Assembly: GCF_037042905.1 (NCBI RefSeq)
Contig: NC_087250.1
Location: forward strand, 9,674,001 to 9,738,000
DNA: 64,000 bases
Reading direction: 5' to 3'
Origin: Lytechinus pictus
Lineage: Eukaryota
Every line of letters begins with the position of its first letter. Within the stretch, counting starts at the first letter, position 1. Below are positions 4,151 to 63,088 of this stretch, one piece after another. Below the pieces are notes generated by a model, which saw only the letters and a program-made list of their open reading frames with translations, was not told the origin of the DNA and ran no database searches. The translations under genes and the position numbers were made by a program.

Positions 4151-4219
4151 GGGGGGGGGGGTGACAATTGATTCTTAACGTTCCAGAAAGCGTCTGTGTA
4201 GTGTTGAAAAAACTCCGTA

Positions 4220-4530
4220 GGCCTGTATTCTGAAGTCAGGTTTAACTAAGACCATGGTCTAACACTGTGCTAAAATTATGGGAAGCCAAATGTGTCAACA
4301 TTTTGATTAAGTTGTATGTTTCTTATGTTTACTGTGCTCTTTCCTGATTCATCAATGGTGAAGACAATTATCTATTCATACTTCCTAGACAATTATGAAT
4401 AATTTGAGAGCTAAATGAGCTGAAATATTATACCTCTACCGTTAGTGACTTATGTGACAATAGGCTTTCCACACTTAAACCACAACTTTAAACCTGAGTT
4501 TAAGTTAAACCCAACTTCAGAATACGGGCC
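4220..4530. mobile_element. MITE family B
   Basis: TIR GGCC(T/C)GTATTCTGAAGT..GGTTTAAC. Relatives at 47708-48428 and 37157 onward. Confidence 0.85.
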
Positions 4531-4632
4531 ATAATGTTTTATTCAGACAAATGAAACCGATTACAGGGCCCCGTTTCATAAAAGTTACTATTACAATCCA
4601 ATGAAAACTACCATGGTAACGTTGATCATCAG

Positions 4633-4750
4633 CAGGTGCGGATCTGGGGGGGGGGGGGAGGGGTTCACGGGGGCACGTGCCCCCCCCACTTTGAGAAGCA
4701 AAATTAGAATTCCACCCCCCCCCCCTTGGAAAATCTTGGATCCGCCCCTG
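4633..4750. mobile_element. 118-bp hAT-like MITE
   Basis: TIR CAGG(T/G)GCGGATC. Perfect 8-bp TSD ATCATCAG (4625-32, 4751-58). Confidence 0.9.
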
Positions 4751-4765
4751 ATCATCAGCCAATCA

Positions 4766-5285
4766 CCGGGGGGGGGGGGGGGCACTTACATTGACGAGTG
4801 GATACCATGCTCGACCAAAAAACACGTAAAAAGGGTGTCTTTTTCACGATAGGGCACGTTACGTACGTAACGTGATAAGGGTGTCAAAAACACAAAAATA
4901 ATGAAAAAAGGGTAACTATTTCGCTAGGAAAGTTACGTGCTTAGGGTCAGATTTGTGGGGATGATAAAACAAAATTAAAATGTTTATAAAGGATGTCCTT
5001 TTTGCCCCAACACTACGTGTTTAGAGTCCGATTTGCGCGAGGTGTGGAAGGTGGCCCGTGACATACTGGTACCGGGTAACAATAAAATATGGTTGTACTT
5101 GTTTAGGGGTTCATTTCAGGGAAATCGTTTTGTTTCCAATACTTGTTAAGGGTAGGGTTTTACACGCCAATACTTGTTAAGGGGTGCATTTTCAGTATAT
5201 GGAAAATACGTGTTAAGGGTGCTTTTCGAGACCCCATGGTCGCGCATGGTATCCACTTGTGAATGGAAGTGCCCCCCCCCCCGGG
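4766..5285 (-). mobile_element. MITE family A, inverted copy
   Basis: Same TIRs. 8-bp TSD GCCAATCA (4758-65, 5286-93). Confidence 0.9.
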
Positions 5286-18268: not shown

Positions 18269-18545
18269 GTGGAGCGTCGTGGCCCAGTGGATTAGTCTCC
18301 GGACTTTGAAACAGAGGGTCGTGGGTTTTAATCCCAGCCATTGCTTAATTTCCTTCAGCAAGGAATTTATCCACAGTGTGCTGCACTCGACCAAGGTGGG
18401 GTTAATGGGTACCGGCAGGAAGTAATTCCTCAGAAAGCTGTGTGCACCTGCTTAGCCGGGTAATAATGGTAGCAGGGCCCGCTGGGAGAACAGTTTTCGG
18501 AACTGAAGTGGTTACCCTGGGTAAATATACCATTAGTATTATTAT
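18269..18545 (+). mobile_element. tRNA-derived SINE, host of the PLE/LINE nest
   Basis: A box TGGCCCAGTGG, degenerate B box, core CACTCGACC.AGGTG...AATGGGTACC, (ATT)n tail. Confidence 0.85.
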
Positions 18546-18553
18546 AAGTGGAT

Positions 18554-18660
18554 GTCATGTGACCTATCTAGCCAATCAGAGACATGTACCCTGCGAGATA
18601 CCGTGCATACGGCATTTCGACAGAGTATATAAGGCCTGTTTTTACAAACCTTTGCTCATT
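18554..18660 (+). promoter_or_regulatory. Pol II core-promoter-like arrangement
   Basis: E-box GTCATGTGAC (18554-63), CCAAT (18572-76), TATATAAG (18626-33), and Inr-like TCATT with A at 18658, 32 bp after the TATA. Confidence 0.5.
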
Positions 18661-18701
18661 CTCCTGAGGACGACAAGAACACACTTGTCGAAACGTCGAG
18701 A
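18660..18701 (+). ncRNA. Minimal type-I hammerhead ribozyme motif
   Basis: TCTC-CTGAGGA-C-GACAAG-aacaca-CTTGTC-GAAA-CG-TC-GAGA. It has stem I (TCTC/GAGA), the CUGANGA core, a 6-bp stem II, GAAA, a vestigial stem III and a GUC cleavage triplet. Confidence 0.8.
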
Positions 18702-18743
18702 TTGGGTGGTCCTTTTCAGGACCAACATATGCCCAAGAAAGAT

Positions 18744-20253
18744 TTCAGAACTCATGTCCTATCTAAGCAGAAGATCGCTATTATGCTCGAGCCAGTTTGG
18801 TTTCAGACCAAACCACTCGTGTGAAACGGCTCTTCTTTGTATGATAGATGAATGGTCTCGTAACGTCGACAATAGGAAAATGAATGGACTTATCTTCCTC
18901 GATTTACGTCGAGCATTCGACACTGTGAACCATGAGCTCCTTTTAGATAAATTAGCAATGTATGGTTGTAGTGCAAGTAGTCTTAAATGGTTTCACTCGT
19001 ATCTTGCTCATCGCAAACAGTATGTTTCTGTAGAAAATAACAAGTCGACAATTAAAGATGTTAATATAGGTCTTCCCCAAGGGTCGGTACTTGGCCCACT
19101 AATGTTTGTTTTATTTATAAATGACCTACCAAAGAGTATTCCAAATGGATCTGTGTTCATGTATGCCGATGATACGACCATTTCTGTATCAGGTACATCT
19201 AAACATGACATTGAAACACAGCTTAATGAAGTAATGAAGCAAACACATGAATGGTTAATTCGAAACAAGCTTATTCTCAATGTCGATAAGACTAAGACAA
19301 TGCTACTTGGTTCACGTCAAAAAGTTTGCACATTACAAGATAAAAACTTAGATATTATTATAGACGGAAAATCCATAGCATGTGTAAATGAATATAAATG
19401 TCTTGGGGTCATTATTGTCTCATATCTAGACTTTAGAAGTCATACAAACAAAGTTGCAAAAGATGTTAAGCAAAAGTTGGGTATTTTGAGAAGACTGAGA
19501 TCTACCTTCTCCGCTGAACAATTGTCACAGATTTACTGGGGGTATATAATGCCCCATATTCTCTATTGTTGTAATGTGTGGACAGGGAGAAGTGATGTAA
19601 ATTACGATATCCTTAATCGCCTACATAAAAGGGCAGCATACTTAATTTCACACTTAACTTGGGAAACCCCGTCCAATGAAGTATTTGATAAATTATCTTG
19701 GCCAACATTGGACAAACTCTTTTGGAAATCTGCCTGCTGCACAATGTTTAAAATAATTCATGAACTTGCCCCACCTATACTTTCACGTAGAATTGTACTT
19801 CTAGACACCGTACTAATGAGGAACTCTAGACGATCAAACAAACTGATTTTGAGACTCCCAAAATGCTCCACCTCTTTCTATCAAAATTATTTCCTTTATT
19901 CAGGTGCCACAAAGTGGAACAACCTTCCGGACGCTACGCGACTAGAAAAGCGGCCAGCTTCCTTTAAATTACTCCTAAAATGATATCATGCAATCACAGA
20001 TAAGAATATGACATCACTTCTCATACTTACAGCCCATGCTACATGTATTATGTTTTATTAGAAATGCATGATCACTTCCTCAATTTGGTTTTTATCCTAT
20101 GCTATCTTATGCTGTTCATAAGAATATGCTTGACTGGTCAAATATTACATAATTTTCTTTGCTCCTGAACTCCCTTTCGCTCTCTCCCTCTCTCACATTT
20201 TTCTTCCCTCTCTCTCTCCACTTCTCTGCCTCTCTCTCTGTTTGCCTCTGCCA

Positions 20254-20294
<41 letters not shown>

Positions 20295-20549
20295 TTCTCC
20301 CTGTCTTACCATGTCCTTTTACTTTCTCATTCTGAATCTTATTTTGATGTGTATATATGTCTTCTTTACTTATGTTTTCTTTATGTTATGAATTATATGT
20401 TTTGGTATTAATGCAGAGCCCTGTGGAAGACCAGCGATTTTTAATGAACGTTTTAATTGTATATATTGTGTAATTTTACATATTTATTTGTATAAAGCTG
20501 AACAGGCTACTCTGGATAAAGATTTGAAATAAATAAATAAAATAAATAA
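18744..20549 (+). mobile_element. 5'-truncated CR1-group LINE with uninterrupted RT ORF (to 19983), 3' UTR and (TAAA)n tail
   Basis: QFGFR, FLDLRRAFDTVNH, GLPQGSVLGP, YADDT and WNNLP motifs. No endonuclease domain. AAAGAT flanks both ends (18738-43, 20550-55). Confidence 0.92.
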
Positions 20550-21773
20550 AAAGATACATGGTGTACCGTGAAACCTACTACACTATTCTTCTTCGCCATG
20601 GAAACCTTCAGAAGTTATATTATTATTATCATTATACAGATCGAGCTTGTCTTGGTGTATACATATTGTAATCCTACCGAGTCTGGCCCGAATGCCTCTG
20701 GAAAGCAGACGGCAAAAAAAAAAAACCAAGCATTTTATTTCAGAGACTCAAGGATGTAGGGAAGGGCAAGGGCAATATCACAGAATATTAACACAGTGAC
20801 TAAACAAAATCAATTCAATTCTTTATTCCATTTCCATAAATCAGATACAATTTTAGAGATGAGCATCCTTACTTCGTAAACAAAAAAAATCACAATGTCT
20901 TCCCTTTGAAGTAAATAGAAACAATAATTTTGTAACTAATCATTTATATTGGGATTTATTCATTGTTTAGTCCATACCGGGGCTCCGTAACACAAAGGTT
21001 TGCACTCAATCGCTAAATACCAATGACCAATCAAGATATTCGTTGCACGCGCACTCTGTTTAAAGGACAAGTCCACCCCGACAAAAAGTTGATTTGAATA
21101 TAAAGAGAAAAATCCAACAATCATAACATTGAAAATTTCATCAAAATCGGATGTAAAATAAGAAAGTTATGACATTTTAAAGTTTCGCTTAATTTCACAC
21201 AACAGTTATATGCACATCCTGGCCAGTATGCAAATGAGGGGACTGATGACATCACGCACTCACTATTTCTTTTGTATTTTATCATCTGAAATATGAAATA
21301 TTCTGATTTTCTCACCCATGCCATTTGAAATCGAGCTTCATTCCTCCCTGAACTTGTGGAATTAACATTGTTTAACATTATGTAGTTCAGTCAAGTTTTA
21401 CATTATTGTCAGTTCTGTATAAATTGAAATATTTTATAATTCAAACAATAAAAAAAAATAGTGAGTGATGGACATCATAGACTCTCGCATTGCATATCAC
21501 TGAGTTGTGCATACAACTGTTTTGAGAAAAATATGCGAAACTTTAAAATGTCATAACTTTCTTATTTTACATCCGATTTTAATTGAAGTTTTCAGTGATG
21601 TGCTTGCGGGGACCTGGGAACGATTTTTTCAGTGGGGGTGCTGAAATCTCTCCTCAAAGGTGGGGGGAGGGGACACAATTGAGTTTTCCATAATTACACA
21701 CACATACACCTCTAAGGGCACCACATACACACCCACCAACCTACGCACACACACACACACCCACACACACACT

Positions 21774-28101: not shown

Positions 28102-28609
28102 CTGTAGGGAAATGACAGATGAAATACCAAAGTAGGCTTACATTTTTTCGATGAAATCTGGGCCCGTAGCAAAAAGAGGGTTTGAATGTATAACCACAAT
28201 TGCTTTGATTTTTATGAAAAGCCTGATGTCTATGAGAGATCGCCCCGGATAGGTCTAATGATTCAAAAGGCTAAACAAAACAATTGCTGCATACCATACA
28301 TTTAAGTTAGGGCCTTTTCACACGTAAATCTTGAATCAGCATTGCAATGATGATTGCAATTCGTCTTTAGAATCATCGGACCTTTCACACGGAAAATTCG
28401 TATCGTAATTAGAATGAAACCTAACTGGAATTCACCTCAGGAATAGAATTTGAATTCGTGAATGTGATTAGCGTTCGTGATTCTAGTTTGGTTCCACACG
28501 TGCAAAAAAATCGTCACTATAGCCTTTTTTTTTTTACTGGAATCGTCGTTCAAATTACGATTTTTTTTTTACCGTGAGAAAGGACGGTTAGTGACCTGAA
28601 AATACTCAC

Positions 28610-28797
28610 TAGCTTTCGCAATGTAGTTGTGAAATTTTGTTCCTCTTCACTATGGATAGAAACCAGATCCCCACGACATGACTGTCCACTGGTGAAATTA
28701 CGACAGGTATACATGGCGCTTGTAAAGCTGGATAACTCGTAAAAGTGTTTGTAGCAACTTCTTTCAAAGAGTTTCCATGATGAATACGGGCAAAGAT
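28610..28797 (-). CDS. EGF/CTL copy 1, exon 4, N-half of a long-form C-type lectin domain (DLCPYSSWKLFERSCYKHF...CRGDLVSIHSEEEQNFTTTLRKL)
   Basis: CP..W..F...CY and LVSIHSEEEQNF CTLD motifs. Acceptor cctgcag|, donor CTA|gtgagt, 188 bp, phase 1-0. Confidence 0.92.
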
Positions 28798-28804
28798 CTG
28801 CAGG

Positions 28805-29073
28805 TAATGATAATAATAGGCATTTATATGACTGCATCTATCTAGAAATATTCTATTCCGAGGCGCGTTATTATTATTATTACCCCGGCTTTAGCTCGAG
28901 CTGCCTTTCAGCGCTTATGCATTCAATGAATTAATCCTGCCGGGTACCCATTCACCTCATCTGTGTTGAGTTCAAAACAATGTGGATAAATTTATTGCTG
29001 AAGGCTGGGATTCGAACCCACGACCCTCTGTTTCAAAGTCAGAAGACTTATCCACTGGGCCACAACGCTCCAC
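28805..29073 (-). mobile_element. tRNA-derived SINE abutting the exon-4 acceptor
   Basis: B box GGTTCGAATCC on the minus strand, core motif, (ATT)n tail ending ~7 nt before the exon. Duplicate at 52398-52666. Confidence 0.85.
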
Positions 29074-29255
29074 AATGTACAACAACGAAAAGCAGAGATG
29101 GTGCCTATTATTAATTAAATAGTTGGAATTCGGAGGGTTTTGAGTGACATGTCTACTATTAAATCATACTGCATAGCTCATGTAGCTCTGATGCACATCG
29201 GGAATGCATTCACCCTTTGTATTCACAATGCAGTGTAACGGCAATCGCAGGTAAA

Positions 29256-29722
29256 GCCAAAGATACTACAAGGGGAAGATCGGACACTTCGACGATATTT
29301 TGAAACGCTCGATAAATGCTTATGGGGAAGGGCGCCCAACAGCGTTGAGTAAGTAAACCTTCGCATATCTGCACGCGACTGTGTATAAAACCTATGGGGA
29401 AAATTAGAAAGGGGATTTTGGAGGGGTTTGGAGAGGGCTCAAGGGTGGCGCATGGAAATAATTCCACGTTTTATTACCAAGAAACCTCTGAAATATATTC
29501 ATCTCAAATTTAAGGAGAAAAAATTGAATGAAAACAATTCAAAATGTAAAATCGTCTATTCCTTCAGCCCTTCACCATATCTCTTTTATGTTTTGTACAC
29601 AACCATCTCGCGATACGCAAAGGTAAAAAAGGTCTTTACTCAACTCTGTAGGGCGCTCTTCCTGAGCGTTTCATTACGCGGTCCATGTACTGTCCGATCT
29701 TCCCCTTGTAGTATCTTTGGTA
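29256..29722. mobile_element. TIR element (duplicate ~52850-53325)
   Basis: ~30-bp TIR CCAAAGATACTACAAGGGGAAGATCGGACA. Confidence 0.8.
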
Positions 29723-30564
29723 TAGCGTTTCGGGGGTGCTGCATATGGGGAATAATACACGCAGCACCCCCTAGGAAAACCCCATCACCCCGCTGACACA
29801 TTCATATGTTCTTGAAAGCATTCTGCGTCGCGGTGCTAAACTCCCTATTTAGAAGCAATAGAGTTTCGTACCGCGACGCAGAATGTTTTTTTTTTAGAAC
29901 ATAGGAATGTATTACAAAAAGGTTTTCGTGACAAGGGGTAACAAAGAGGTATTTGCCGAAAATTGGTGAATCATAACAGAAGTTTCGTCCGGGACTCTGG
30001 ACGAACGATATATTTGCAATTTTCGTGTTTTTTAAATATATTTATTTCAATACGGTTAAAAAAATACTTGCTTTCAGCAGACAAGGCTGTTTTTCAGCAA
30101 GTCCGTACAATTCAATTTACAAAATTCTCAAAAACAAGTTGAAAAATAAAAACGGGTGTTTTCTACTCGCCGTAGGGGAAATGGGACCGCAGCGTTAGGA
30201 CGAAACTGCTGATTTGGTTCACCAATATTCGACAAAGACCTCCCAGCTTTTCATTGTCATTTGACTCCTATTTTGATATCGGTTTGTGTTATAGCAAAAA
30301 GCGATCAGCCGATACAACGTGCAACAATTTACTACATGGAATTATAGACCAAGCTTCAGAAAAATCGAGGGGACGGAAACAGAACTACTCCATTGATTCA
30401 TATGTCGGTTCGATAATGAGGGTGATGATGGTGAGGAAATAACATAAAAGATTAAATCCATGCTGCACATATGTTTCTTATACTCCACTTACTTCATTTT
30501 AATTTGAATCCAAAGTTCAGAATAAAGGACGAATAAGCTTACTTAACATGTTTACCATCACAAG

Positions 30565-31290
30565 AATAATAGTAATAATAATGATATAACACTTATAGGG
30601 CGCTTAATACAGATGTTTCTAAGCGTTCAGTTTTCTGCTTTCTTTTGAATTACCGGGGAAAATAAAAAGTGGTCTTAATGATTTCAAAACAAAATTTAAA
30701 GAAACAAACGAAACGCAACTAAGATACGCACCTCCATAATAATAGACCTACCCACAACTGATATCTAGACATTAAAAAGGTGGGTCTTTAGCAAGGTCTC
30801 AAGGGAGTTGGCATTATGGATACGAGATTGTAATTTATTCCACTGGATTAGAACAACAACAGAGAAGGCTCGATCACCATAACTGGTATTTGTACGTGGT
30901 CCTAAAGTTAGCTGCAAGGTTTTTGAAGAACGAAGTGGTCTAAGTGAGCTAGAAGAGCGGAGAGAGATGAGGTAAGAGAGATATTCAGGAGCTAGGCCAT
31001 TGATTATTTTATACGTCAAAAGAAGAACTTTGAAAACGATGCGCTGGCGTATTGGAAGCCAATAAAATAATTACAGAATATGTGTGATATGTTCAGATTT
31101 TCTTAAAAGAGTAACAAGCCTTGCAGCAGTATTTTTTCATTCTTTGGAGTGGGCGTTAATGTGAGAGTGGGAAACCAGAAATAGCAGAATTGCAGTAATC
31201 AAGGTGGAAAGATACAAAAGCATGGGTAAGTTTACTAGTTATGGTCATTGTGGTCGGGTCGAGTAGCTTCCTCATTTTTCCATGTTTGGA
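30565..31290 (-). mobile_element. L2-type LINE 3' fragment (intron 3 of lectin copy 1)
   Basis: YGDRAFSVV...WNKL...LKTHLF, disrupted. Duplicate at ~54190-54910. Confidence 0.85.
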
Positions 31291-31756
31291 AAATCAAATC
31301 CATGTAGCAACGAACCATATTTAATTTGACCAATAACAGAGCCACCATTGGGATCGTTACATGTGTCTAAATGACTTATCAATCCTTTTCATTTGCTCTT
31401 TAGTCTTCATCGAAAGTTCCCTGTATTGCAGAACATGTATCGGTGTCTTTTCGCTTTGTTTTCCAGATTGACTATTAGTAAATGTACATAATCTTTTTAA
31501 ACAAGACAGGCGCCCTTTATGAAAGTTCAGTCCAGACAGATCTAAGGCTACCTCTTAAACATAAGAAATAGGACACTTATTTTGACAATCAAAGCTTTAC
31601 AGGTTTCAACATCGACACGGTAGCGAATGGGAGCGCAAAGAGAAGGGTTTTTTCAGTCTGTGTCATCGTCTTCCCTTACTTCTCTCACACTCACTTTCTT
31701 TATTTCGAAACCTACTATCGTTTTTTTGTCCACATTCTGGTCATTTTTATACATAC

Positions 31757-31861
31757 CGACTGCACATGTTGGTCCTTGAAACCTGGCTGAACAGGAGCAG
31801 GTGAAACCTTCCAGTGTTTCCGTGCATGTTCCTCCATTAAGACATGGGTTGGGTAAACAGT
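31757..31861 (-). CDS. EGF/CTL copy 1, exon 3, EGF-like domain [35 protein letters not shown]
   Basis: Six-Cys EGF pattern, 105-bp phase 1-1 exon, donor TCG|gtatgt. Confidence 0.93.
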
Positions 31862-32486
31862 CTGAGATCGAGAATTTGACGTGACACGACAAATTGAAGT
31901 AGATGGGAAAGTGAGTTAGCAGGGCATATAGAAACGGAGAAAAGAGACAAAGGCAGAAACGGGGAGACATATAAAGACAGAGGCAGAAACGGGGAGACAT
32001 AAAAAGACAGAAGGGATGGTTTGGGAAATAAAAGTGATATTGCCATCTTTATCGTCAGAGGAACAATTGTATTCAAAACCTGTTATTTTACTCTCAAAAC
32101 ACTCGACGGGCGGATCCAGAGGGGCACATTCGGCCCGTGCCACCCCCTTTTAGGAGGCATCAGTATTTTTTGTTTTGGTCATTCATAGACGTGAGGACTT
32201 ATTTTTTTATTTTATTTATTTTTTTGGCTTGTCAAATTGTTCATGGAACAAAATGACATTTCTTTGATATTGAAGACCTTTTTTTGCATGTCATTTTTTT
32301 CTACATCAAATAACCTCGAATTGGTAGTGAGTTCTTTTTTTTCCAACATTTTCCTATAAATACGTGCCTCCCCCTCCCCATTAGAAAATCCTGGATTCAC
32401 CCAAGCTCGATACAATCCACACCCTTGTAGTACAAACTAGACAATGCTTTTTTTTCCATGGCGTGAAATTGGTAGTTTCATTAGTA

Positions 32487-32886
32487 TGTGGGCGATTCCA
32501 TGCTAGAAAAATCAGCCATTTTCTCAACATTTTTCAACCTGCTGTCCAGACGAACGAAGAACTTCAATTTGCTTTGTGGTAATATTGAAGGACTACTGGG
32601 TAGACATGCAAACAACTGACAACCAACATAAATATGTTGTCCATAGTTGAATTAGAGCTTAAAATGTTGCGTGCCGTACGGGACATTTCTGCGTCCCGTA
32701 CAACACTTTTTACCTCTAATTTACCCACAATCTATTTTTTGTGTGTGTTGGTTATTAGTTTTTCACATGACTACCCACGATAGCTTTATCATTGACAACA
32801 AAGAATATTTTATTGCTCAAGCATTCGGCTAGGAAACTAGAAATTGTCAAAATGTCCCGTACGAAACGCATGGAATCGCCCATGTG
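32487..32886. mobile_element. TIR element (duplicate ~56108-56508)
   Basis: TIR TGGGCGATTCCATGC. Confidence 0.7.
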
Positions 32887-33489
32887 GAATTCACAGCGGA
32901 GCAATTGCCCAGAGGAGCAAATTTCATCGAATCATTATGAGCCACCAATTTTCGACAACGAATTCTTGCTCTATGTCATAAAGGATACTCGATATTTTAT
33001 CCTACATAAATCAAATTTTGTATACATATTGGTCAGAATAGCATCATGTGACCAAACATATTTTCACTATTTTGCGATGATGTTGAAAATGAAATGACCA
33101 TTGAAGAAAATTGACTATTCCGTGATGTCAATAACGGAATAATGCACTATTCCATCATTGACATCTCATTATACTGACACACATCATGCAATCTCTCGGG
33201 CGCATCGGTCAGCGAGGCAATTCGACCGGGAAAATCTTTGGCGTAGGCACAAATCCGCGCGATATCTGTATTTCAGTTCAGATTAAAAATAGGATGAACT
33301 AGATGTGCAAGAACTAGATTATCAAGACGTATTGTTCTAACTTAATATTACATGTACGATATAAAACAAATATACCAGGCTTTCATTTTGAAAGTAAAGA
33401 GGCAATTATTCATTCTCGGTTGCACTGGCAAAATTAGTAATGCCAGTCCAACCTCGGACAAATAATTAAAAGAGGCTTTGACAACATAC

Positions 33490-33654
33490 CTGGGAGTTTG
33501 AAGATGAAGATGAATCGATTTGAAACGATTCTCTTTATCCCTGGCCAGTTGGTGTCATCTCTGACTATTAACTTGGGTTCCAGGGCAGCGATGTCTACCG
33601 TTTGCAGTAAGCCTGCTCCGCACCTTGCGTTTACTGGCATACCAAACTTTAAGA
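33490..33654 (-). CDS. EGF/CTL copy 1, exon 2 (LKFGMPVNA-RCGAGLLQTVDIAALEPKLIVRDDTNWPGIKRIVSNRFIFIFKLP)
   Basis: Acceptor (t)n cag|, donor CAG|gtatgt, 165 bp, phase 1-1. Completes the signal peptide (VNA|R). Confidence 0.85.
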
Positions 33655-34208
33655 CTGAAAAAAAAAAATCAGACGAGATTCCAAGTCAGTCCCATCCCTA
33701 CCGTCTTCGGTGAGCAAAAACAAATATGTGGCTTGGCCCTGGGAAACGGGGGTATACTGGGGAGAAGGGGGGGGGGGTATCTTTCTTTTTCTTTTTTCGC
33801 GAATTTTGTCGCCAAATTTGTCGTGATGTATATTAACCTTGCTTGAGCTGTGATCAAACCAGCGCCTGAAACTGGATGGAAGTTGTCCGGATTCCAGCAG
33901 GAGAGCCAATTTGGGGAGTGTTATAGGATATCACGTATAAACGGAAGCGTAAAAGAAAACACTGGTACGCCGAGTACAAAACGAAATTGATTATTGATCA
34001 TCGATTCTTTTTTTAAGCATCCATGGGACTAAGCTTGAAGGGAGGTTGATGATGTTGGAGAAGAATGCAATGAATAAGAGGGTTATCAACACAGAGCGTT
34101 CGTGCATAATAAGCTAAAAGATAAATGCAAAATACCACAAAATATACGTATTGGGTTAGAAATATTACGGAATCCATGTGACATAAACGTAACTAAGTAA
34201 ATACTTAC

Positions 34209-34263
34209 TCAAAAGCAAAAAGCTTGTTAGCACTAGAGATCTTCTAACGAAACCTCTCGTCAT
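34209..34263 (-). CDS. EGF/C-type lectin gene copy 1, coding exon 1 (signal peptide MTRGFVRRSLVLTSFLLL-I)
   Basis: ATG at 34263 inside an exon with acceptor ctcttttttccag| (34288). Donor TGA|gtaagt, phase 1. Basic n-region followed by a hydrophobic h-region. Confidence 0.85.
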
Positions 34264-34559
34264 CTTCTTCAACGCCGAGTATATTTACTGGAAAAAAGAG
34301 ATGCGTAAATATGGACAAGTTTGTGTATTGATTTGATTTTTACGCATTTACATAGCATTTATGATTTATGTCATTCACGCAGACAAGTTATTACATGAAT
34401 GATAATAATAATACTAATTATTATTATTATTATATAACTTATCCGTTAGTATTTGCACATATGGGCAGTTGTAATTATATATTATAACGGTAATGGATTT
34501 GAGTTTTTTTCTAATCAGTATGACCATTTAGTTTCAAACGTTGTTCTTCCGAGGCCAAG

Positions 34560-35068
34560 TATAATAATAATAACAATAATAATAATAATAACAATAATGA
34601 TAATAACAATGATGATAACAACAAAAGCTGGATTTTTAAGCGATCTTTGTCTGAGGATACATAGCGCTGCAATAATTACCCCAGCTTTAACTGTGCTGCC
34701 ATGGCCCTTGGAAGCGGGGTGCTGAGTGTATTAATCACCATTGGCAGCACCCCCAGGTATTCTGGCATAAATTGGGGGAAAATCTTAACCAAAATTACCC
34801 TCATTTTGTAGTAAAACCCCCTGTTTGTTGTTTTCTTTTTTCAAATTTCTTGAAACCAATTTGAGCTCCTGGAGGGCCCTGATACGGGCTAAAGCTGAAG
34901 CATTCAAGGAATTTCTTCCTACAGGTTACCCATTCATCTCGCCTGGGTTGAGTGCAGCACAATGTGGGTAAATTTCTTGAAGGAAAGTAGACCATGGCTA
35001 GGAATCGAACCCACGTCCCTCAGATTAAAAGATGAGAGTCATAAAGTACTAGACCACGACACCCCCAC
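34560..35068 (-). mobile_element. tRNA-derived SINE, interrupted (duplicate ~58283-58789)
   Basis: GGTTCGATTCC B box, core motif and (ATT/ATC)n tail on the minus strand. Confidence 0.7.
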
Positions 35069-35651
35069 ATAAAGAGCAGAACAAATCGTAGCAGGTGATG
35101 GATGATCCGATGTTATCTCTTTTCCTCAACTTTGCAGGGCGTATATATGTTACCATCATAATCATAACACACACACAAACAAAACTACACCACGGTCGTT
35201 TCCCTCCAGGGCTGCAACTTGTCACCTTTGCTATTTCATTCTTGCTTTCACTTAGTTTACGAATGTTTTTCGAATGTTTTCCAAGGACGTTATGTGCGTC
35301 AACGCAGAGAATAATCCTTTGTTCATAGGGGGGAACAATGCTTACCCCCCTCCCAAAAAAAAAAAAATGACTGTCCTCTGACTGACGCTCATGATGGACA
35401 TGATGGTAAAAATGGTAAAGATAATGTCTGTTACCTCTGCCTTGTTTCCTTTTGCATCCGCAAGCCTCACAAAATTAGTACAGACCTTAAAACATTGATA
35501 CTTATCAAGGCAGAATCTCCTTAGTCAAGAATACGCATGCATTCAATGCGCGCAAATTGTGTTTCGTCGCAGAGCAACACACTACAGCAGTGGCACGAAG
35601 ACAGCATTTACGCATTGATTGTCAAGATCCCAACGTGAGTGATAGCTTTAA

Positions 35652-36246
35652 AGGGGAATCCAGCCCTGGCCATACACTGTTGTGTTGAGAAGGAGAAAAA
35701 TAAATTAAAGAGAATGGTGATAGTTTGAAAGAAATTGGACAAGCAATAATAAAGTTATAGCTGTTTATAAATTGAGATCACTAATACTATGTAGATTTCA
35801 AATTGGCAAATGGGTAAGTAAATTATGACAAGGGGCAAGGACAACTTTCCCATAGGCCATGTACTTTATTATCAGCGATTTGTGGTTTTCTCCTAAGTAC
35901 CCATTCCCCTGGGGCCTTAATCTAAATATAAAAAAGGTAGTATATTGTTTTATGTCTTCATGAAAGAAAAACATAAATTAAAATAAAACTTTTGGGAAAA
36001 AATGACATTTTAGCCATAATATGCATTGGAGTACATGGAAGAGTATTCCTTGCCTTACATCACTATGACATCCCATATGCGGCCATTTGAAGTCTCCATG
36101 GGTATAGTGATTACCAATATTTACAACTTTTAAAAATTCTTAACTTTCTTGTTGTTTGTCCAAAATTGTTCAAACTTCCACCTATCAACTTGTCTGATTT
36201 TTCTTTTCCTTATAAAAACAAGTTTTTATTTGGGCTTGATTCCCCT
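35652..36246. mobile_element. TTAA-flanked (Kolobok-like) MITE (duplicate 59374-59967)
   Basis: TTAA|AGGGGAATC.A.CCC...GGG.TTGATTCCCCT|TTAA. Confidence 0.88.
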
Positions 36247-36989
36247 TTAAAGGTATACGTTCCTGGAATTCATGAGGGCGTTGGACAAACTACGCTCAAC
36301 TTGCGGCGCCAGCTACTCATTGGCACCAGTGCAATACGACGCCTACGCAGATGCCACGTTCTGTATGCCCGAACTGCATGACGACTTTCAATTCGCGTAT
36401 GCTTCAGCTGCTGTTCAAAGATCTTGGCAGGTTGGCCCCGCCTCCTACTGCAGTGACGTAAGCAGATCAACGCAGCGCAGTACTGTGCATAGGTACATGC
36501 ACATCACTGGTGATTGACAGCCGCATGCAAATTACATGTACGACAATGATCTTTGTAAAGAGGTAAGAGGCGAGTAGAGCAGTAACAATACCGTCCAACA
36601 GCGCCATACCTTTTAGTGAGCATATCCGAGATACCGAATTCAAATGATGACCGGAAGCACTCTCAAAACAAAACAGTCGAAATGACTAGTTAATCGGGTC
36701 AGTTGAGTGCAAACTGTCATTCTAGTCATGTGTATTCTAATTGTATTTTACTAGAACAGAGTTATTTCTGACTAGAATATACGTCAGAAATGTGACTAGA
36801 CATTGTCAGTTGCACCCAGCTGACTACTGATCTAGTCATTTTGACTGCTGTGATTCAAGGATGTGTGACCAGGGCTTCACAAGACAAAGAGCCTTGCTCT
36901 AAAACTGACCATGCTCATGCATGGAATTAACTTCAAGAAAAAAATTAATAGGACGAACATCCATTTCCTATCTACAACATAAATGATTT

Positions 36990-37140
36990 ATACCTCGGTC
37001 ACATTTGCTCTACGGCGAGTCGAAAACAGCCGTTTTATTCATTTTTTCTAAACCACCTTTATGTAGCTGGTACAAAAATGTTAAAACGGTCGTTTTCGAT
37101 TCGCCGTACGGCCGCCGTAGAGCAAATGTGACCGAGGTAT
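36990..37140. mobile_element. Palindromic MITE (duplicate 60727-60877)
   Basis: Perfect TIR ATACCTCGGTCACATTTGCTCTACGGCG. Confidence 0.85.
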
Positions 37141-37299
37141 CAGTGTTAAACAGTGTGGCCCGTATTCTGAACTTCGGTTTAATCTAAACTCTTGTCTAAA
37201 GTTGTGGTTTAACAATGAAAAGTCAGTCGTGGCACAAGTCTCTAGGAAAAAAGTATTTGGCAGACTAGTTAATTAGAATATAAAAATGTGTAAAAATAG

Positions 37300-38875
37300 T
37301 AACTTATATATTTTTTCTTGCCATCCAGGCTGAAAGCTGGCTCATTAAACATAAGGAGCGCGCAATTAAAACCAAACCATTCAATTTTTGGCCTCTCGTA
37401 GTTTTAACACTGGCTTAGACTATTCTATAACTTACACCCTACTTCGGAATACCGTCCAACCTTATATATTTTTCTTGCCATCCAGGCTGGAGGCTGGCTC
37501 ATTAAACATAAGGAGCGCGCAATTAAAACCAAACCATTTAATTTTTGGCCTCTCATAGTTTTAACACTGGCTTAGACTATACTATAACTTACACCTTACT
37601 TCAGAATACCGTCCAACCTTATATATTTTTTCTTGCCATCCAGGCTGAAAGCTGGCTCTTTAAACATAAGGAGCGCGCAATTAAAACCAAACCATTCAAT
37701 TTTTGGCCTCTCGTAGTTTTAACACTGGCTTAGACTATTCTATAACTTACACCCTACTTCGGAATACCGTCCAACCTTATATATTTTTCTTGCCATCCAG
37801 GCTGGAGGCTGGCTCATTAAACATAAGGAGCGCGCAATTAAAACCAAACCATTTAATTTTTGGCCTCTCATAGTTTTAACACTGGCTTAGACTATACTAT
37901 AACTTACACCTTACTTCAGAATACCGTCCAACCTTATATATTTTTCTTGCCATCCAATCTGAAAGCTGGCTCATTAAACACAAGGAGCGCGCAATTAAAA
38001 CCAAACCATTCAATTTTTGGCCTCTCGTAGTTTTAACACTGGCTTAGACTATTCTATAACTTACACCCTACTTCGGAATACCGTCCAACCTTATATATTT
38101 TTCTTGCCATCCAGGCTGGAGGCTGGCTCATTAAACATAAGGAGCGCGCAATTAAAACCAAACCATTTAATTTTTGGCCTCTCATAGTTTGAACACTGGC
38201 TTAGACTATACTATAACTTACACCCTACTTCGGAATACCGTCCAACCTTATATATTTTTCTTGCCATCCAGGCTGGAGGCTGGCTCATTAAACATAAGGA
38301 GCGCGCAATTAAAACCAAACCATTTAATTTTTGGCCTCTCATAGTTTGAACACTGGCTTAGACTATACTATAACTTACACCTTACTTCAGAATACCGTCC
38401 AACCTTATATATTTTTTCTTGCCATCCAGGCTGAAAGCTGGCTCATTAAACATAATGAGCGCGCAATTAAAACCAAACCATTCAATTTTTGGCCTCTCGT
38501 AGTTTTAACACTGGCTTAGACTATTCTATAACTTACACCCTACTTCGGAATACCGTCCAACCTTATATATTTTTCTTGCCATCCAGGCTGGAGGCTGGCT
38601 CATTAAACATAAGGAGCGCGCAATTAAAACCAAACCATTTAATTTTTGGCCTCTCATAGTTTTAACACTGGCTTAGACTATACTATAACTTACACCCTAC
38701 TTCGGAATACCGTCCAACCTTATATATTTTCCCTTGCCATCCAGGCTGGAGGCTGGCTCATTAAACATAAGGAGCGCGCAATTAAAACCAAACCATTTAA
38801 TTGTTGGCCTCTCATAGTTTTAACACTGGCTTAGACTATACTATAACTTACACCCTACTTCGGAATACCGTCCAA
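37300..38875 (+). repeat. 157-bp minisatellite, 10 units
   Basis: CTTGCCATCC marker recurs every 157-158 bp from 37317 to ~38733. Confidence 0.95.
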
Positions 38876-39757
38876 TAAGTTCTACGTAGGTTGAAAGTAG
38901 AAAATCACCGTTTGGATCCGTCCCCGTCGATGGAAGTTGAGTCTGTAATAAGCAGCCGAAGCGATGGCATATTTTATTGTTGGCTTCAACGATCTCAAAC
39001 AGACTATACTTAAATAACAACGTGTCTTCCATCACAACACCTCGTACGTATTCAATAAATGAATAATATTTTGACAACTGTAACTGTTTATGTTGATTCA
39101 TATATTCAATAAATATTGGAAGATAAAAAAATTTGCCTAAAATAACATCAAACTTTTTCTTTTTAATGATCAAACATAACAATGGTTTATAGTATTTTTA
39201 CAGTCCATATCAATAAACATTTTTGAAGAACTGTAATATTACATTTCTAATGCTATGGTTACAGCACGTTGTTCGTGTCTTTGCACGAACTTATCTCACA
39301 ACCTAAACTAATTAATGTTTATGATAATCAATAATTGTGAAAAATATATATTATAGATTCACGTATTGGCTCCATACAGTCAGAACAATAAACAGCCCAA
39401 AGTTAATGTTTTTTTTTTTGCTTTGCCTTTTTTTGCCTCTGAATATGATTGATCTGATCATAACAAATTTGAGTAACTTTGAATAAACATTTGTTTGGAA
39501 AAAAAGCATTTACTTTCGGATTTATTTTTTTCACTACATATATGCAGTATATATATATATATATGACCTAGATGGTGCAAACTGAAATATTGTTTTCTGT
39601 GGATCATTGTAATGCCGGGAGTGGCAGAATGGTGCAGGATTAAACTCTGAACATGGTATTTTCATGAATCAGAAGAGTGAATGGAGACATTTAGTCTAGT
39701 CTTACTTTCACTGTGATAAAAAACAATTTTTATGTTTTACATGTTATCACAGTTATA

Positions 39758-39928
39758 TTGTGCTGCACTCAACTCAGGTGAGGTGAATGGGTACCTGGTA
39801 GGAATATATTCCTTGAAATGCCGAGCGCGTAAAATCTGCTTGAGCTACAGCCAGGGTAATAATATCCTAGTCCTTTGAAAGCATAAAGACGTTATTCATA
39901 ATGTGCTATGCGCCATACAAGAACTGAC

Positions 39929-39950
<22 letters not shown>
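39758..39950 (+). mobile_element. 5'-truncated SINE (duplicate ~62866-63060)
   Basis: TGTGCTGCACTCAAC.CAGGTGAGGTGAATGGGTACC core and (ATT)n tail. Confidence 0.75.
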
Positions 39951-39980
<30 letters not shown>

Positions 39981-40087
39981 CCACTCCCGCACTACCATTC
40001 ACACATGCATGCACAGCATTATGATTGATCTGATCTTTAAACAAATGAGTAACTTTGAATAAATATTTGTTTCGAAAAAAACATTAA

Positions 40088-40681
40088 AGGACAAGTCCAC
40101 TCCAACAAAAAGTTGATTTGAATAAAAAGAGAAAAATTCAACAAACAAAACATTGAAAATAGCATCATAATCGGATGTAAAATAAGAAAGTTATTACATT
40201 TTAAAGTTTCGTTTAATTTTACAAAACAGTTATATGCTCATCCTGGTCAGTATGCAAATGAGGAGACTGATGACGTCATCCACTCACTATTTCTTTTGTA
40301 TTTTATTATATGAAATATGAAATATTCTAATTTTCTCCTCATTGCCAAGTGAAACAACGATTAACTCCTCCCTGAACAAGTGGAGTTAGCATTGTTTAAC
40401 ACTATATGGTTCAGTCAAGTTGGTCCTTGATATTATATATTGTATTGTATTGTAAATATTGTACAATTCAAACATAAAAAACAAAAGAAATAGTGAGTGA
40501 TGAACATCATCGACTGACTCACCTAGTTGTGCATATCACTGTTTTGTGAAAAATAAGCGAAACTTTAAAATGTCATAACTTTCTTATTTTACATCCGATT
40601 ATGATGAAATTTTCAGTGTTGTGCTAGTTTTATTTTTCTCTATTTATTCAAATCAACATTTTTTGGGGGTGGACTTGACCT
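40088..40681. mobile_element. TTAA-flanked (Kolobok-like) non-autonomous element, family C
   Basis: TTAA|AGGACAAGTCCAC...GTGGACTTGACCT|TTAA with long imperfect TIRs. Duplicate at 63196-63779, truncated relative at 21063-21600. Confidence 0.88.
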
Positions 40682-42624
40682 TTAACTTAGGAATTAGATG
40701 GACAACTACACCTGGGTTTCCTTATTCATATAGTGCAGTGGGTTCTTAATGTGCAAAGGTGGTGACTTTCCTCGAGACAGGACCTCAAATTAACGCCCTA
40801 TCCGAGAGACGGTTTTCTTCGACTGTAACATAGCCAGCATCGATAGAACAGAAATGAAACGTATATTATTCAATCATGTATATTTTTGTTGTTTTTATAT
40901 TTTTTGGTGACTTATGTTTTAAGGGGCTTGTTGAAAAATAGCCTGACGGTCAAGAGCTTTTTTACACCATATTGAAATTAACAAACAAACAAATAAACAG
41001 AACTGGAGCTTTTTTTTTCCTTGTGCTGATATATCCCTAGACACCTATAACAAACTTAGCACCTAAAAACACTCATAACATGCGTAACTGTAGGAACCGG
41101 TTTGTGCAACATCACCCAATAACAGGTAGGGGAGACCGGTGACAATTGTAACATGTGGCAAATGTAACAGAGGCTCTCACTAGTCCGGCAGCCCAGGAGA
41201 TTTATTCAACCGGAAGCCGGACAAGCAAATGACCCCATAGCTGGATGGCATGGACCCTGAAATTTACAAAAATGCATTGCTGCCGGGTTTTATCCGTGGT
41301 CTTCCCGCCTAAATGATCTATAACGTCACTACAAAATGGCCCTATTTCACCATTTTTTTGACATTCTACACATCGCATGAAGTCAAGGTGGAATAGCTCA
41401 GCCAAACCATACTTGTTTTGTATGAAACTTACAAAATATATTGTTCAAGTATTCAAAAGAGACATGCAAAATTTCACGAACAGGAATTATTGTTTACATA
41501 TGCAAATTACGTCATGAAATTTGCATATCATTAATTTTTGAGATTTTTTGCATCAAAAATTGTCGAAAATCGATTTAGAAATTTATTTTCTTTTTTAGTG
41601 TACTTTTTTTGATATATTTCCTGTCAAGCATAATATCGTTCTCTTTATCTATATCTATACTTTTAGAAAATATATGTCAGTAATTGGAAAAGGCATTATA
41701 GACTGTGATTTCAACCCCCTTTTCAATATGGTGCGTATATAGAAATCGCGCGTTTTGGGCCTATTTTCACCATTTAGCTGAGGTGTGCGAACGATATGCC
41801 CACTTTATCGATGTTTCCTGCATTTTGCATGATATTAAATCTTCGAAACAACATATTTTCATCTTAATTATGTCTCTGCTGATAAATAAATGATTTCAGC
41901 AAAGATTGATTGCCCACTGGGCAGTCTATAGGTTACGTTTTCAGCCTAGTTTTCGACGACGAACCTATACCATGTATGACTGCATTATTGTAGTCAAGTC
42001 GGAAATGGGAGTTCCTGTGCACCATCAAAATATACTTTTAAATCAACGTTTTTGTATTGCCTGAAGTGTCTAGTTAATGAATCTTGATGTTTTCTTTGCA
42101 AAATCGTGTCCCACTGGGTTCAAATTGATATTTCTGGCGGCCCTTTTGGATTTTTTTCAATGAAAATTCATTATTTTCATATTTTTGTGCAGAGAGTGTG
42201 ACAATAGGACAATCTCACATGAATACGCATTTTACTATGATTCGGATAGTAGAAATCGGTTGAAATCGTTTTCTGGACAGACCTGCTAATATATTTTGAA
42301 ATAAATAAAAATATACCCCGAAATTGTCATGCTTTTGGTCCAAAATTTGCATGTGCATTGATATCTATCTGCTCAGTCATTAACATCAACAACTATTGCA
42401 AAATATCAGCATTCGACACGAAAGAGGATATATTATACCAAGAATACTGAAACGCTTCGTGACAGTATAAATGAATGTCTTAATTTGCTTAGTTAAAGGG
42501 AAAATACCATGTATTACTCGTTATTGCGATAAAATGACACAAAAAAGCAACCTCTGTGTCATAGGCACACATGCAAGAGCCCGAGGAAGGTCCCCTTTCC
42601 CTATCAGTAGCTTGTCTAAAAAAT

Positions 42625-45191: not shown

Positions 45192-45432
45192 GTGGAGCGT
45201 CGTGGCCTAGTGGATTAGTCTCCGGAATTTGAAACAGAGGGCCGTGGGTTCAAATCCAAGCCATGGCGTAATTTCCTTCAGCAAGGAATTTATCCACAGT
45301 GTGCTGCACTCGACCAAGGTGAGGCACCTGCTTAGCCGGGTAATAAAGATAGCAGGGCCCGCTGGGAGAACAGTTTTCGGAACTGAAGTGGCTACCCTGG
45401 GTAAAAATACCGTTATTATTATTATTATTATC
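45192..45432 (+). mobile_element. Same SINE in duplicate copy 2 (empty site, internal deletion)
   Basis: Aligns to 18269-18545 and 20619 onward. Confidence 0.85.
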
Positions 45433-51833: not shown

Positions 51834-52202
51834 GATCGCCCCGGATATGTCTAATTATTCAAAATGCTAAACAAAACAATTGCTGTATACCGCACATTTA
51901 AGTTAGGGCCTTTTCACATGTACATCTTGAATCATCATTGCAATGATGATTGCAATTCGTCTTTAGAATCATCGGACCTTTCACACGGAAAATTCGTATC
52001 GTAATTTGAGTGAAACCTAACTGGAATTCACCTCCGGAAAAGAATTTGAATTCGTGAATGTGATTAGCCTTCGTGATTCTAGTTTGGTTCCAGACGTGCA
52101 AAAAAATCGTCACAAGCCTTTTTTTTTTTTTACTGGAATCGTCGTTCAAATTACGATTTGTTTACCGTGAGAAAGGACGGTTAGTGACCTGAAAATACTC
52201 AC

Positions 52203-52390
52203 TAGCTTTCGCAATGTAGTTGTGAAATTTAGTTCCTCTTCACTATGGATAGAAACCAGATCCCCACGACATGACTGTCCACTGGTGAAATTACGACAGG
52301 TATACATGGCGCCTGTAAAGCTGGCTAACTCGTAAAATTTTTCGTAGCAACTTCTTTCAAAGAGTTTCCATGATGAATACGGGCAAAGAT
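52203..52390 (-). CDS. EGF/CTL copy 2, exon 4 (CTLD N-half: ...CYEKFYELASFTGAMYTC...SEEELNF...)
   Basis: 188 bp, acceptor ccttcag|, donor gtgagt. Five aa differences from copy 1. Confidence 0.92.
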
Positions 52391-52397
52391 CTGAAGG

Positions 52398-52666
52398 TAA
52401 TAATAATAATAGGCATTTATATGGCGCCATCTATCTAGAAATATTCTATTCCGAGGCGCGTTGTTATTATTATTACCCCGGCTTTAGCTCGAGCTGCCAT
52501 TCAGCGCTCATGCATTCAAGGAATTAATCCTGCTGGGTACCCATTCACCTCATCTGTGTTAAATGCAGCACAATGTGGATAAATTTCTTGCTGAAGGCTG
52601 GGATTCGAACCCACGACCCTCTGTTTCGAAGTCAGGAGACTTATCCACTGGGCCACAACGCTCCAC
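52398..52666 (-). mobile_element. tRNA-derived SINE (duplicate)
   Basis: As 28805-29073. Confidence 0.85.
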
Positions 52667-54910: not shown

Positions 54911-55378
54911 AAAATCAAATCCATGTAGCAACGTACCGTATTAAATTTGACCAATAACAGAGCCACCATTGGGGTCGTTACATCTGTCTAAATGACTTAT
55001 CAATCCTTTTCATTTGCTCTTTAGTCTTCATCGAAAGTTCCCTGTATTGCAGAACATGTATCGGTGTCTTTTCGCTTTGTTTTCCAGATTGACTATTAGT
55101 AAATGTACATAATCTTTTTAACCAAGACAGGCGCCCTTTATGAAAGTTCAGTCCAGACAGATCTAAGGCTACCTCTTAAACATAATAAATAGGACACTTA
55201 TTTTGACAATCAAAGCTTTACAGGTTTCAACATCGACACGGTAGCGAATGGGAGCGCAAAGAGAAGGGTTTTTTCAGTCTATGTCATCTTCTTCCCTTAC
55301 TTCTCTCAAACTCACTTTCTTTATTTCGAAACCTACTATTGGTTATATTGCCCACATTCTGCTTATTTGTATACATAC

Positions 55379-63036: not shown

Positions 63037-63088
<52 letters not shown>

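Follow-up and report, generated by a model that had tools for sequence, protein, structure and literature searches.

Minimal type-I hammerhead ribozymes occur in the terminal repeats of animal Penelope-like elements (PLEs). As set out in the available portion of Cervera and De la Pena (2014; PMC4209133), these ribozymes have a helix I of 4 to 5 bp, a long helix II, an unpaired nucleotide that separates position 9 from position 10.1, a G10.1-C11.1 pair, and no helix III, and a palindrome at positions 15.2 to 16.2 permits an active dimer. Among the closest described elements is PAc, which comes from Anolis carolinensis and is of the Poseidon type (Frangieh et al. 2024; PMC11167929), the reverse transcriptase (RT) of which is primed at two internal RNA sites and leaves an optional "tail" of 30 to 40 bp, a PLE feature also described in the accessible part of PMC8557442. 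The same Anolis study found that ATT is the preferred cut motif and that protein binding requires RNA near the start of the open reading frame (ORF). Here, we describe a short insert in a 64,000-nucleotide stretch of the sea urchin Lytechinus pictus (assembly GCF_037042905.1, contig NC_087250.1, positions 9,674,001 to 9,738,000 of the forward strand; the whole stretch is called the window). We consider it probable, at roughly 85%, that the insert is a dead, truncated copy of a 2.8-kb PLE which retains the transcribed part of a pseudo-long terminal repeat (pseudo-LTR) with 113 nt of promoter, and that the element combines a PLE-type minimal hammerhead cut with internally primed reverse transcription.

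The preliminary description of this DNA had placed a hammerhead exactly at a predicted transcription start, in an insert with a promoter of its own. The hammerhead string with its core, stems and GUC triplet is present at 18660-18701, as are the E-box, the CCAAT box, TATATAAG and a TCATT whose A is 18658, and the ribozyme begins 2 nt after that inferred start site. Absent from that description was a histone-type stem-loop with its downstream element at 18708-18742. The insert and its LINE (long interspersed element) are made up as follows, with positions numbered along the window.

18544..18743, forward strand: first piece of the PLE copy, unit 282 to about unit 481 of the 2826-bp element, with promoter, start site, ribozyme, stem-loop and downstream element
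18556..18561, forward strand: E-box CATGTG, read in the sequence
18572..18576, forward strand: CCAAT box, read in the sequence; intact units have CCAAT at unit 308
18626..18633, forward strand: TATA box TATATAAG; the start site follows 32 nt downstream
18656..18661, forward strand: cap-site-like TCATTC, with the inferred transcription start at A18658 (unit A395)
18660..18701, forward strand: minimal type-I hammerhead, TCTC CTGAGGA C GACAAG aacaca CTTGTC GAAA CG TC GAGA
18660-63 with 18698-701, forward strand: helix I, UCUC/GAGA, 4 bp
18664-70 and 18671, forward strand: core CUGAGGA and unpaired C
18672-77 with 18684-89, forward strand: helix II, GACAAG/CUUGUC, with its loop at 18678-83
18690-93, 18694-95 and 18696-97, forward strand: GAAA, palindromic CG, and UC
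C18697/G18698, forward strand: predicted cut, after the GUC triplet ending at 18697
18708..18723, forward strand: histone-type stem-loop GGTCCT TTTC AGGACC, 6-bp stem and UUUC loop, 10 nt after the cut
18734..18742, forward strand: downstream element CAAGAAAGA of the U7-binding type, identical to that of host early H1, H4 and H2B and 10 nt after the stem as there
18744..20549, forward strand: later LINE insertion, a 5'-truncated non-LTR retrotransposon with an RT fragment, a 3' untranslated region with a CT microsatellite, and an (AAATA)n tail
20550..20620, forward strand: second piece of the PLE copy, with conserved block CATGGTGTACCGTGAAACC, the ORF ATG at 20598-20600 and the tail, ending at the long-form 3' terminus (about unit 547)

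The insert is a dead, 5'-truncated, LINE-interrupted fragment of an autonomous PLE. All that remains is the 3'-terminal ~260 bp of the element, 98% identical over 199 nt to an intact tandem unit (locus L009), in keeping with the young age first proposed for it. The preliminary description had rejoined the pieces across 18743/20556, and rightly: the intervening LINE matches RVT_1 (E = 2.1e-31) and has an AAAGAT target duplication on both sides, read by eye from the sequence. The 5' end of the copy, at unit 282, is a non-recurrent position 113 nt upstream of the start site. Rather than a solo pseudo-LTR in the sense of LTR recombination, as had been suggested, the insert is a retrotransposition product truncated from the 5' side down to its 3'-terminal piece, and it ends at one of two family-wide 3' termini. 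Its target was the (ATT)n tail of a tRNA-derived short interspersed element (SINE) with a tRNA-like head, present in both paralogous segments (18270-18543 and ~45195-45432). At the paralogous site, ~45400-45432, the SINE tail runs uninterrupted and the insert is missing, as originally claimed. Moreover, the 198-bp stretch has at least 41 matches at 97 to 100% identity in the 811-Mb assembly, where 40 of 1145 candidates were scored.

The parent family is an autonomous PLE of an already known kind. On contig C10, matches recur at a spacing of 2826 bp in two opposed tandem arrays, and each 2826-bp unit carries an 807-amino-acid ORF that begins with ATG and has an RVT_1 domain at residues 344-534 (E = 1.2e-11). 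Pfam GIY-YIG gave no direct match to the ORF even at E<=1. The last 184 amino acids are 36% identical (E = 4e-32) to residues 422-607 of a homolog, P0108, a span that includes the homolog's Pfam GIY-YIG domain (505-562; 25.5 bits against a cut-off of 22.6), and the C-terminal motif VYRIPCECGKVYIGET...R...EH is readable in the PLE ORF. Thus, by way of the homolog alignment, the PLE ORF has the C-terminal GIY-YIG endonuclease of such elements. Among 8000 candidates scored, 689 ORF homologs were found at E<=1e-10; identity is 97% to a Lytechinus pictus protein, 52% to one of Strongylocentrotus purpuratus, and 39% over 99% of the length to one of Anolis carolinensis. The search for tandem copies linked to a GIY-YIG/RT ORF that the preliminary description had proposed thus met with many, and the 3' ends of these copies are also as in PLEs. 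Two clusters of 3' termini lie about 33 nt apart, at unit 511-514 in 50 of the 131 copy segments of the census described below and at unit 539-551 in 59; in the first 12 loci they fell at unit 509-513 or 544-550, and a second PLE family has the same two forms. The two alternative termini correspond to the optional 30-40-bp tail of PLEs. Inverted partner junctions are frequent among the 80 sampled loci, and an AT-rich or microsatellite target was seen for the window copy, in its (ATT)n SINE tail.

PAc resembles the sea urchin element in its tandem units, its two 3' termini 30-40 nt apart within the ORF start, its ATT-type targets, and a ribozyme close to the ORF start. The Anolis protein that is 39% identical over 99% of the ORF length may or may not be PAc. 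The PAc ORF starts within the ribozyme, whereas the sea urchin cut lies 89 nt upstream of the ATG, and only the sea urchin element has a histone-like stem-loop and downstream element between cut and ATG. Moreover, cleavage by the PAc hammerhead is protein dependent in vitro (PMC11167929). We note that the block CATGGTGTACCGT(G/A)AAACC (window 20557-20575; L118 618-636) is kept between this family (family 1) and family 2, which share 55% protein identity. The block lies 15-30 nt before the short-form 3' terminus and is a candidate RT recognition site.

Judged by its sequence, the motif at 18660-18701 is a genuine PLE-type minimal hammerhead that matches every published feature. The core C3 U4 G5 A6 N7 G8 A9 ... 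G12 A13 A14 A15.1 ... U16.1 H17 is found at 18664-18697, together with the unpaired C18671, the pair G18672-C18689 as G10.1-C11.1, and the palindrome ACGU at 18693-18696, and self-cleavage is predicted after H17. The preliminary description had recognized such a hammerhead, with its palindromic vestigial helix III, in a Penelope-like pseudo-LTR, and that assignment holds. Nor is the motif a chance one: when any base is allowed at position 7, the 34-nt core has 154 occurrences in the 811-Mb genome versus 0 for a reversed control. The minimum-free-energy fold of 18655-18705, at -15.8 kcal/mol, is modestly better than those of shuffled sequence (z = -2.51; 3 of the 200 shuffles reach as low an energy). 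According to the available portion of PMC4209133, the minimal hammerheads of metazoan PLEs likewise sit in pseudo-LTRs, are of type I with a 4-bp helix I and a long helix II, leave one nucleotide unpaired between A9 and G10.1, keep the G10.1-C11.1 pair, have the palindrome ACGU instead of helix III, and occur as numerous dispersed single copies from truncated elements. They differ in that the sequence family here is specific to this sea urchin lineage. The supplements of PMC4209133 may already list sea urchin minimal hammerheads. Finally, a start site 2 nt before the ribozyme and copy ends at the cut are not reported in the portion of that paper available.

Comparison among PLE families bears on the two helices. 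Within the family, 60 segments gave 37 distinct sequences in which the stems are nearly invariant and position 7, the sole free core position, is G, A or T. Three further ribozymes come from related families.

Family 2 (~55% protein identity): ACUC CUGAAGA C GGACAG..CUGUCC GAAA CG UC GAGU
Family 3 (~42% protein identity): UCAC UUGACAA A GUUG..CAAC GAAA CG UC GUGA
Family 3b: UCAC UUGAUAA A GAGU..ACUC GAAA GC UC GUGA

Families 3 and 3b have the published U3-A8 core covariant, and apart from N7 and this coupled variant the core is invariant in an alignment of six sequences from the four families. The unpaired nucleotide, G10.1-C11.1 and the palindrome are kept in all four families, with AGCU as the palindrome of family 3b. 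In the alignment, bases pair in 97.2% of cells, and compensatory change is found at 3 of the 6 pairs scored; 0 of 500 shuffles reach the observed values, and slid controls pair at 8-50%. We conclude that compensatory change supports helices I and II as predicted. The preliminary description had named a lack of other genomic copies and of covariation in the stems as grounds for giving it up; the copies are many, and stems I and II covary.

Where copies of the element begin points to a cut at the predicted site. For a census of copy ends, the first 100 genomic places of a combined stem-loop-plus-element pattern were taken, 5 histone-type places, 1 place already sampled and 1 pair were left out, and neighbours were merged to give 80 loci. 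Mapped onto the unaltered L009 unit, these gave 134 segments, of which 3 short of unit 430 were set aside to leave 131. Thirteen of the 131 have their 5' end exactly at unit 435, the G after GUC, each with a different flank, and 3 further segments begin at unit 436. No segment begins at unit 433-434 and 2 begin at unit 432, and the local background is, by our arithmetic, ~1.5 starts per position. The boundary at 435 was also seen at one further locus in RNA reads, which show the same other boundaries as the copies (unit 511/512, 543/548 and 394-398) and the inverted junctions. The one-nucleotide peak at 435 is solid but indirect evidence that template RNAs were cut by the ribozyme, and it would be the genomic footprint of cleavage in vivo.

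A second group of 5' ends points to the start site. Copies begin at unit 393-399, around A395 (18658), in 31 of 131 segments, and only 8 of 131 reach upstream of unit 383. With up to 2 mismatches allowed, the 20-mer just upstream of the start occurs 152 times in the genome (reversed control, 9), the one just upstream of the cut, and thus downstream of the start, 766 times (control, 148), and the one just after the cut 872 times (control, 1). We read the 393-399 cluster as probable capped full-length leaders. Both the ribozyme at the start site and the promoter belonging to the insert, as proposed in the preliminary description, are supported. We note that some copies were amplified as composites. 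One, the reverse complement of unit 407-548 followed by unit 396-514, recurs at 96-98% identity in 8 of 80 loci (L043, L050, L054, L057, L059, L074, L101 and L109). Another, unit 404-512 with 504-539, recurs in L033, L063, L082, L085 and L092.

How the element would replicate can be sketched from these features. RNA polymerase II would start at A18658 under the CCAAT/TATA promoter, and the first 44 nt of the RNA would form the PLE-type minimal hammerhead. As a single ribozyme could not close helix III, the cut at C18697/G18698 would be made only with a second copy, via the palindrome ACGU, or with the element's protein. PLE hammerhead dimers were reportedly described by Lunse, Weinberg and Breaker in 2017. 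Cleavage would take off a capped leader of ~40 nt and leave an RNA that begins at G18698. Nicked, AT-rich target DNA would then prime RT internally at two places of the RNA, which lie ~77 and 110 nt downstream of the cut, and the two priming sites would give rise to the two 3' termini, the short form and the tail form. The identity and anatomy of the element, its covariation and the distribution of copy ends are observed in this genome; the dependence on a dimer or on protein, and the chemistry of cleavage, are presumed from published work on other PLEs.

Several observations weigh against this mechanism. The window copy has only one ribozyme, and a dimer in cis is impossible. The lowest-energy fold pairs the bulged C with the catalytic G12, which is an inactive conformer. 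A dimer cofold at -38.8 kcal/mol, versus 2 x -18.5 for monomers, is not diagnostic, because ViennaRNA lengthens helix II across strands instead of building a hammerhead dimer. Minimal hammerheads cleave poorly in vitro, according to the available portion of PMC4209133, and in Anolis no RNA-seq ends were found where the hammerhead is cut (PMC11167929). Searches with hammerhead models, as the preliminary description had advised, came up empty: Rfam reported no hammerhead in the window at gathering thresholds, and no hammerhead family, RF00163 included, in 18500-18800 at E<=10. The miss arises because Rfam hammerhead models include helix III, without which minimal hammerheads occur. On the genome, the best match to the Rfam hammerhead model reached 25.7 bits, under the cut-off, with 73 of 115,913 candidates scored and sub-threshold matches also in 12 of 14 bacterial and archaeal control genomes. 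The covariation comes from 6 sequences, with helix II scored at its outer two pairs only and the inner pairs judged by eye. The census started from copies whose stem-loop and downstream element are intact, so that ends past unit 445 are under-represented; 8 of the 14 segments at the peak at unit 396 are one amplified composite, and the 5'-end clusters at 403/404 and 407/408 are mostly amplified composites.

Expression data add to these points. Raw reads of three rRNA-depleted RNA-seq runs under the same species label, and of one run under a related label, were mapped to the unit. All read depth fell within unit ~391-548, with both strands covered, and 88-96% of mapped reads continued into unlike flanks; thus the reads come from short genomic copies inside host transcripts and not from the element's own RNA. 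Depth over the ORF was ~0 in the four runs, and there was no pile-up of read starts or ends anywhere. We note that at unit 473 a minority of transcribed copies, in reads mapped to the L009 unit, have CACGAAAGA in place of CAAGAAAGA (in one orientation, 9 of 67 in run X21 and 9 of 38 in run X22). CACGAAAGA is the downstream-element variant of the host H3 and H2A genes.

Between the cut and the ATG, the element carries what we read as a putative co-opted host histone-RNA signal. In replication-dependent histone mRNAs, the 3' end is specified by a stem-loop and a downstream element to which the U7 snRNP binds. Its stem-loop has a 6-bp stem, a GG base, a U-A top pair and a UUUC loop, with a purine-rich element at a fixed distance, and stem length, loop and top pair agree with those of host genes. 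The early histone genes of the host all have GGCYCT TTTC/TTTA AGRGCC, 10 nt, and then CA(A/C)GAAAGAAT. A sperm-type H2B bearing SPTKR repeats, and an early histone repeat of ~7.4 kb arranged in tandem, also mark the host as a sea urchin. The 11-mer CAAGAAAGAAT of the PLE is exact in early H1, H4 and H2B, and its 10-nt spacing from the stem is the same. Local alignments of the PLE signal to host histone 3' regions score 36-44, versus maxima of 20-23 for shuffled sequence. Genomewide, a generic stem-loop-plus-element pattern has 1420 matches and its reversed control 0. The exact PLE stem-loop and downstream element account for 475 of the 1420, the remainder being mainly tandem early histone genes, and a PLE origin of most such sites was rejected. 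Family 2 retains AGTCCT TTTC AGGACT, with G-C replaced by A-U at the basal pair, followed by CAAGAAAGAATAC, and neither stem-loop nor downstream element is present in the family-3 and family-3b sequences examined (L116 and L114). SLBP binding and U7-dependent cleavage of the signal are putative; Rfam U7 found nothing in the genome or in controls, with 65 of 190,597 candidates scored.

Alternatively, the stem-loop and CAAGAAAGAAT may be the element's own RNA signal for its RT, with a coincidental likeness to histone genes, which is quite possible if short of probable. The differences from host signals speak for it. The Rfam Histone3 model (RF00032) matches 18708-18745 at 17.0 bits (E = 0.051), under its threshold of 34, whereas seven genuine host stem-loops score 35.4-41.3 bits, and it does not report the family-2 version at E<=1. 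The PLE stem-loop lacks the host-type A-rich 5' flank (AAC before GG), is followed by AACA and not ACCA, and stands at a spacing of 5 nt instead of 10 in family 2. Each unit carries the signal upstream of its ORF, and only where copies are in tandem or flanked by repeats does an ORF precede it. Moreover, 3' ends at the expected histone cleavage site do not cluster (1 of 131, at unit 464), which counts against a histone signal, and the need of the Anolis PLE protein for RNA near the ORF start would fit a signal for RT. Coincidence, however, has to account for the identity of CAAGAAAGAAT and its 10-nt spacing in H1, H4 and H2B, for the shared stem and loop, for the alignment scores, and for the absence of the pattern from the reversed control, and in addition for histone-like promoter sequence in the same repeats.

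That promoter sequence is found in several families. In family 1, the 16 nt of GTCACCCACGTCCGCA (unit 267-282) are identical to the host early H4 promoter, where they stand ~39-54 nt before the cap site. Family 2 has CCCCCACGTCCGCA 39 nt before a cap-like CTCACTCC, and family 3 has a 17-mer, GTCACCCACGTCCGCAA, identical to a stretch of the host early H4 promoter. In family 3b, by contrast, three ATTTGCAT octamers stand with a CCAAT and TATAAATA, a set that resembles the H2B promoter. The 16-mer GTCACCCACGTCCGCA is a candidate binding site of the H4 factor UHF-1, as a lead only. CTCATTC lies upstream of the ATG in the host early H4 gene and would be the H4 cap site, a histone-type cap sequence like that of the PLE repeats.

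Thus, the promoter element, cap site, stem-loop and downstream element form a module that is real as sequence and is possibly a new regulatory variant. Full-text literature searches, supplements aside, that paired PLEs with sea urchins or with either part of the histone 3' signal gave no report of such a module, and the word "histone" has 0 occurrences in the accessible parts of PMC8557442 and of a 2026 retrozyme preprint.

We speculate that a sea urchin PLE lineage took over the host's replication-dependent histone expression, with the early-H4-type promoter element GTCACCCACGTCCGCA, cap site, stem-loop and U7-binding element, a proposal that is tentative and on balance unlikely. At the cleavage-stage burst of histones, transcription and handling of the element would then be those of a histone message. 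In one version, the distal repeat would yield a nonpolyadenylated, SLBP-bound 3' end. In the other, once the hammerhead had stripped the cap, the new 5' end would lie 10 nt from the stem-loop, which would recruit SLBP to stabilize or translate the uncapped RNA. The latter follows a report that self-cleavage alone can drive cap-independent translation (PMC13725137, in the part available). On the same speculative reading, the numerous copies of 117-150 nt that extend from either the start or the cut to the places of internal priming would amount to strong-stop-like products, a hint of a retrovirus-like jump between terminal repeats.

Histone-type sequences were also seen at other loci. In the early histone repeat of L031, upstream of H4 (reverse-complement 4785-4799 and 4859-4874), there is, in addition to the 16-mer in common with the PLE promoter, a 15-mer, TTCAGAAATTATATC, which lies ~125 nt before the H4 cap and equals the very 3' end, or tail, of the PLE. 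This could be chance (E = 0.003), the remnant of an old insertion, or an exchange between PLE and H4. Locus L015 (G000:C3:5962000-5971900) has an ORF of 271 amino acids in two inverted copies, with a transposase domain of the ISXO2/IS1595 type (E = 3.2e-19). Behind each copy stand a canonical histone stem-loop, at 8749 (+) and 5766 (reverse-complement coordinates), and CAAGAAAGA. L015 is thus another non-histone, transposon-type gene with a histone 3' signal. At L016 (G000:C2:2934000-2943900), GGCCCTTTTCAGGGCC ACCAAAACTC CAAGAAAGA comes ~140 nt after an acidic ORF of 168 amino acids with no Pfam family (4186-4867). The signal recurs in L018, where no ORF passed the filter. Finally, in the family-3b locus L114 (G000:C3:36213250-36213950), a more distant PLE family, the ATTTGCAT octamers, CCAAT and TATAAATA stand before the hammerhead at 200-400 and resemble the host H2B promoter.

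As for the cut site, the excess of copies beginning at unit 435 might have arisen from RT stopping at the folded ribozyme or from microhomology joining at GAGA, with the hammerhead conserved for another reason, such as protein binding. We consider this improbable. In its favour, 16 further copies of the 131 begin at unit 438-444, immediately 3' of helix I and where the stem-loop has its foot, and so look like products of structure-related stopping, several 435 starts are joined to inverted partner copies and not to unique DNA, and no RNA ends have been found at the site, here or in PMC11167929. A stalled RT would, however, be expected to halt before helix I is unwound, at unit 439, and not past its last base, and the peak is one nucleotide wide. 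Moreover, at least 5 of the 435 starts adjoin unrelated unique flanks (L051, L062, L077, L093 and L100). Cleavage of template RNA by the hammerhead remains our preferred explanation for the peak.

Retrozymes (PMC4918200 and PMC7229834, in the portions available), which are nonautonomous, noncoding units in small hammerhead-bounded tandem repeats and yield circular RNA, are similar in having a hammerhead in a promoter-bearing terminal repeat and, in animals, dimer-type type-I motifs; they differ in that the sea urchin family encodes its own RT and endonuclease. That the insert is a nonautonomous retrozyme unit, as the preliminary description had allowed, or a recombinational solo repeat is very improbable: the copy is indeed only ~260 bp with promoter and ribozyme, the available part of the 2026 preprint argues that animal retrozymes are nonautonomous PLE derivatives, and short inverted composites of the family were amplified (8 of 80 loci have one structure), but the copy is collinear with the end of an autonomous 2826-bp unit, has the standard long-form 3' terminus and a non-recurrent start at unit 282, no small tandem units were seen in the window or the sampled loci, and PLE repeats come from tandem copies, so that LTR-LTR recombination is not expected.

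Elsewhere in the window, a 157-bp satellite forms two arrays, at 37312-38869 and 61049-61977. Both lie inside direct repeats of ~12 kb (~28500-40750 and ~52150-63850) that are ~23.6-23.7 kb apart and 96-100% identical.

Whether minimal PLE hammerheads cut in vivo had been left open by their weak activity in vitro and by the lack of RNA ends at the Anolis site. Here, genomic copies would record where template RNAs began, and they point to both the start site and the cut, which makes cleavage in vivo testable with this family. Moreover, if the histone-like module works, L. pictus would host a retrotransposon that borrows the histone promoter, the histone stem-loop and the U7 system.

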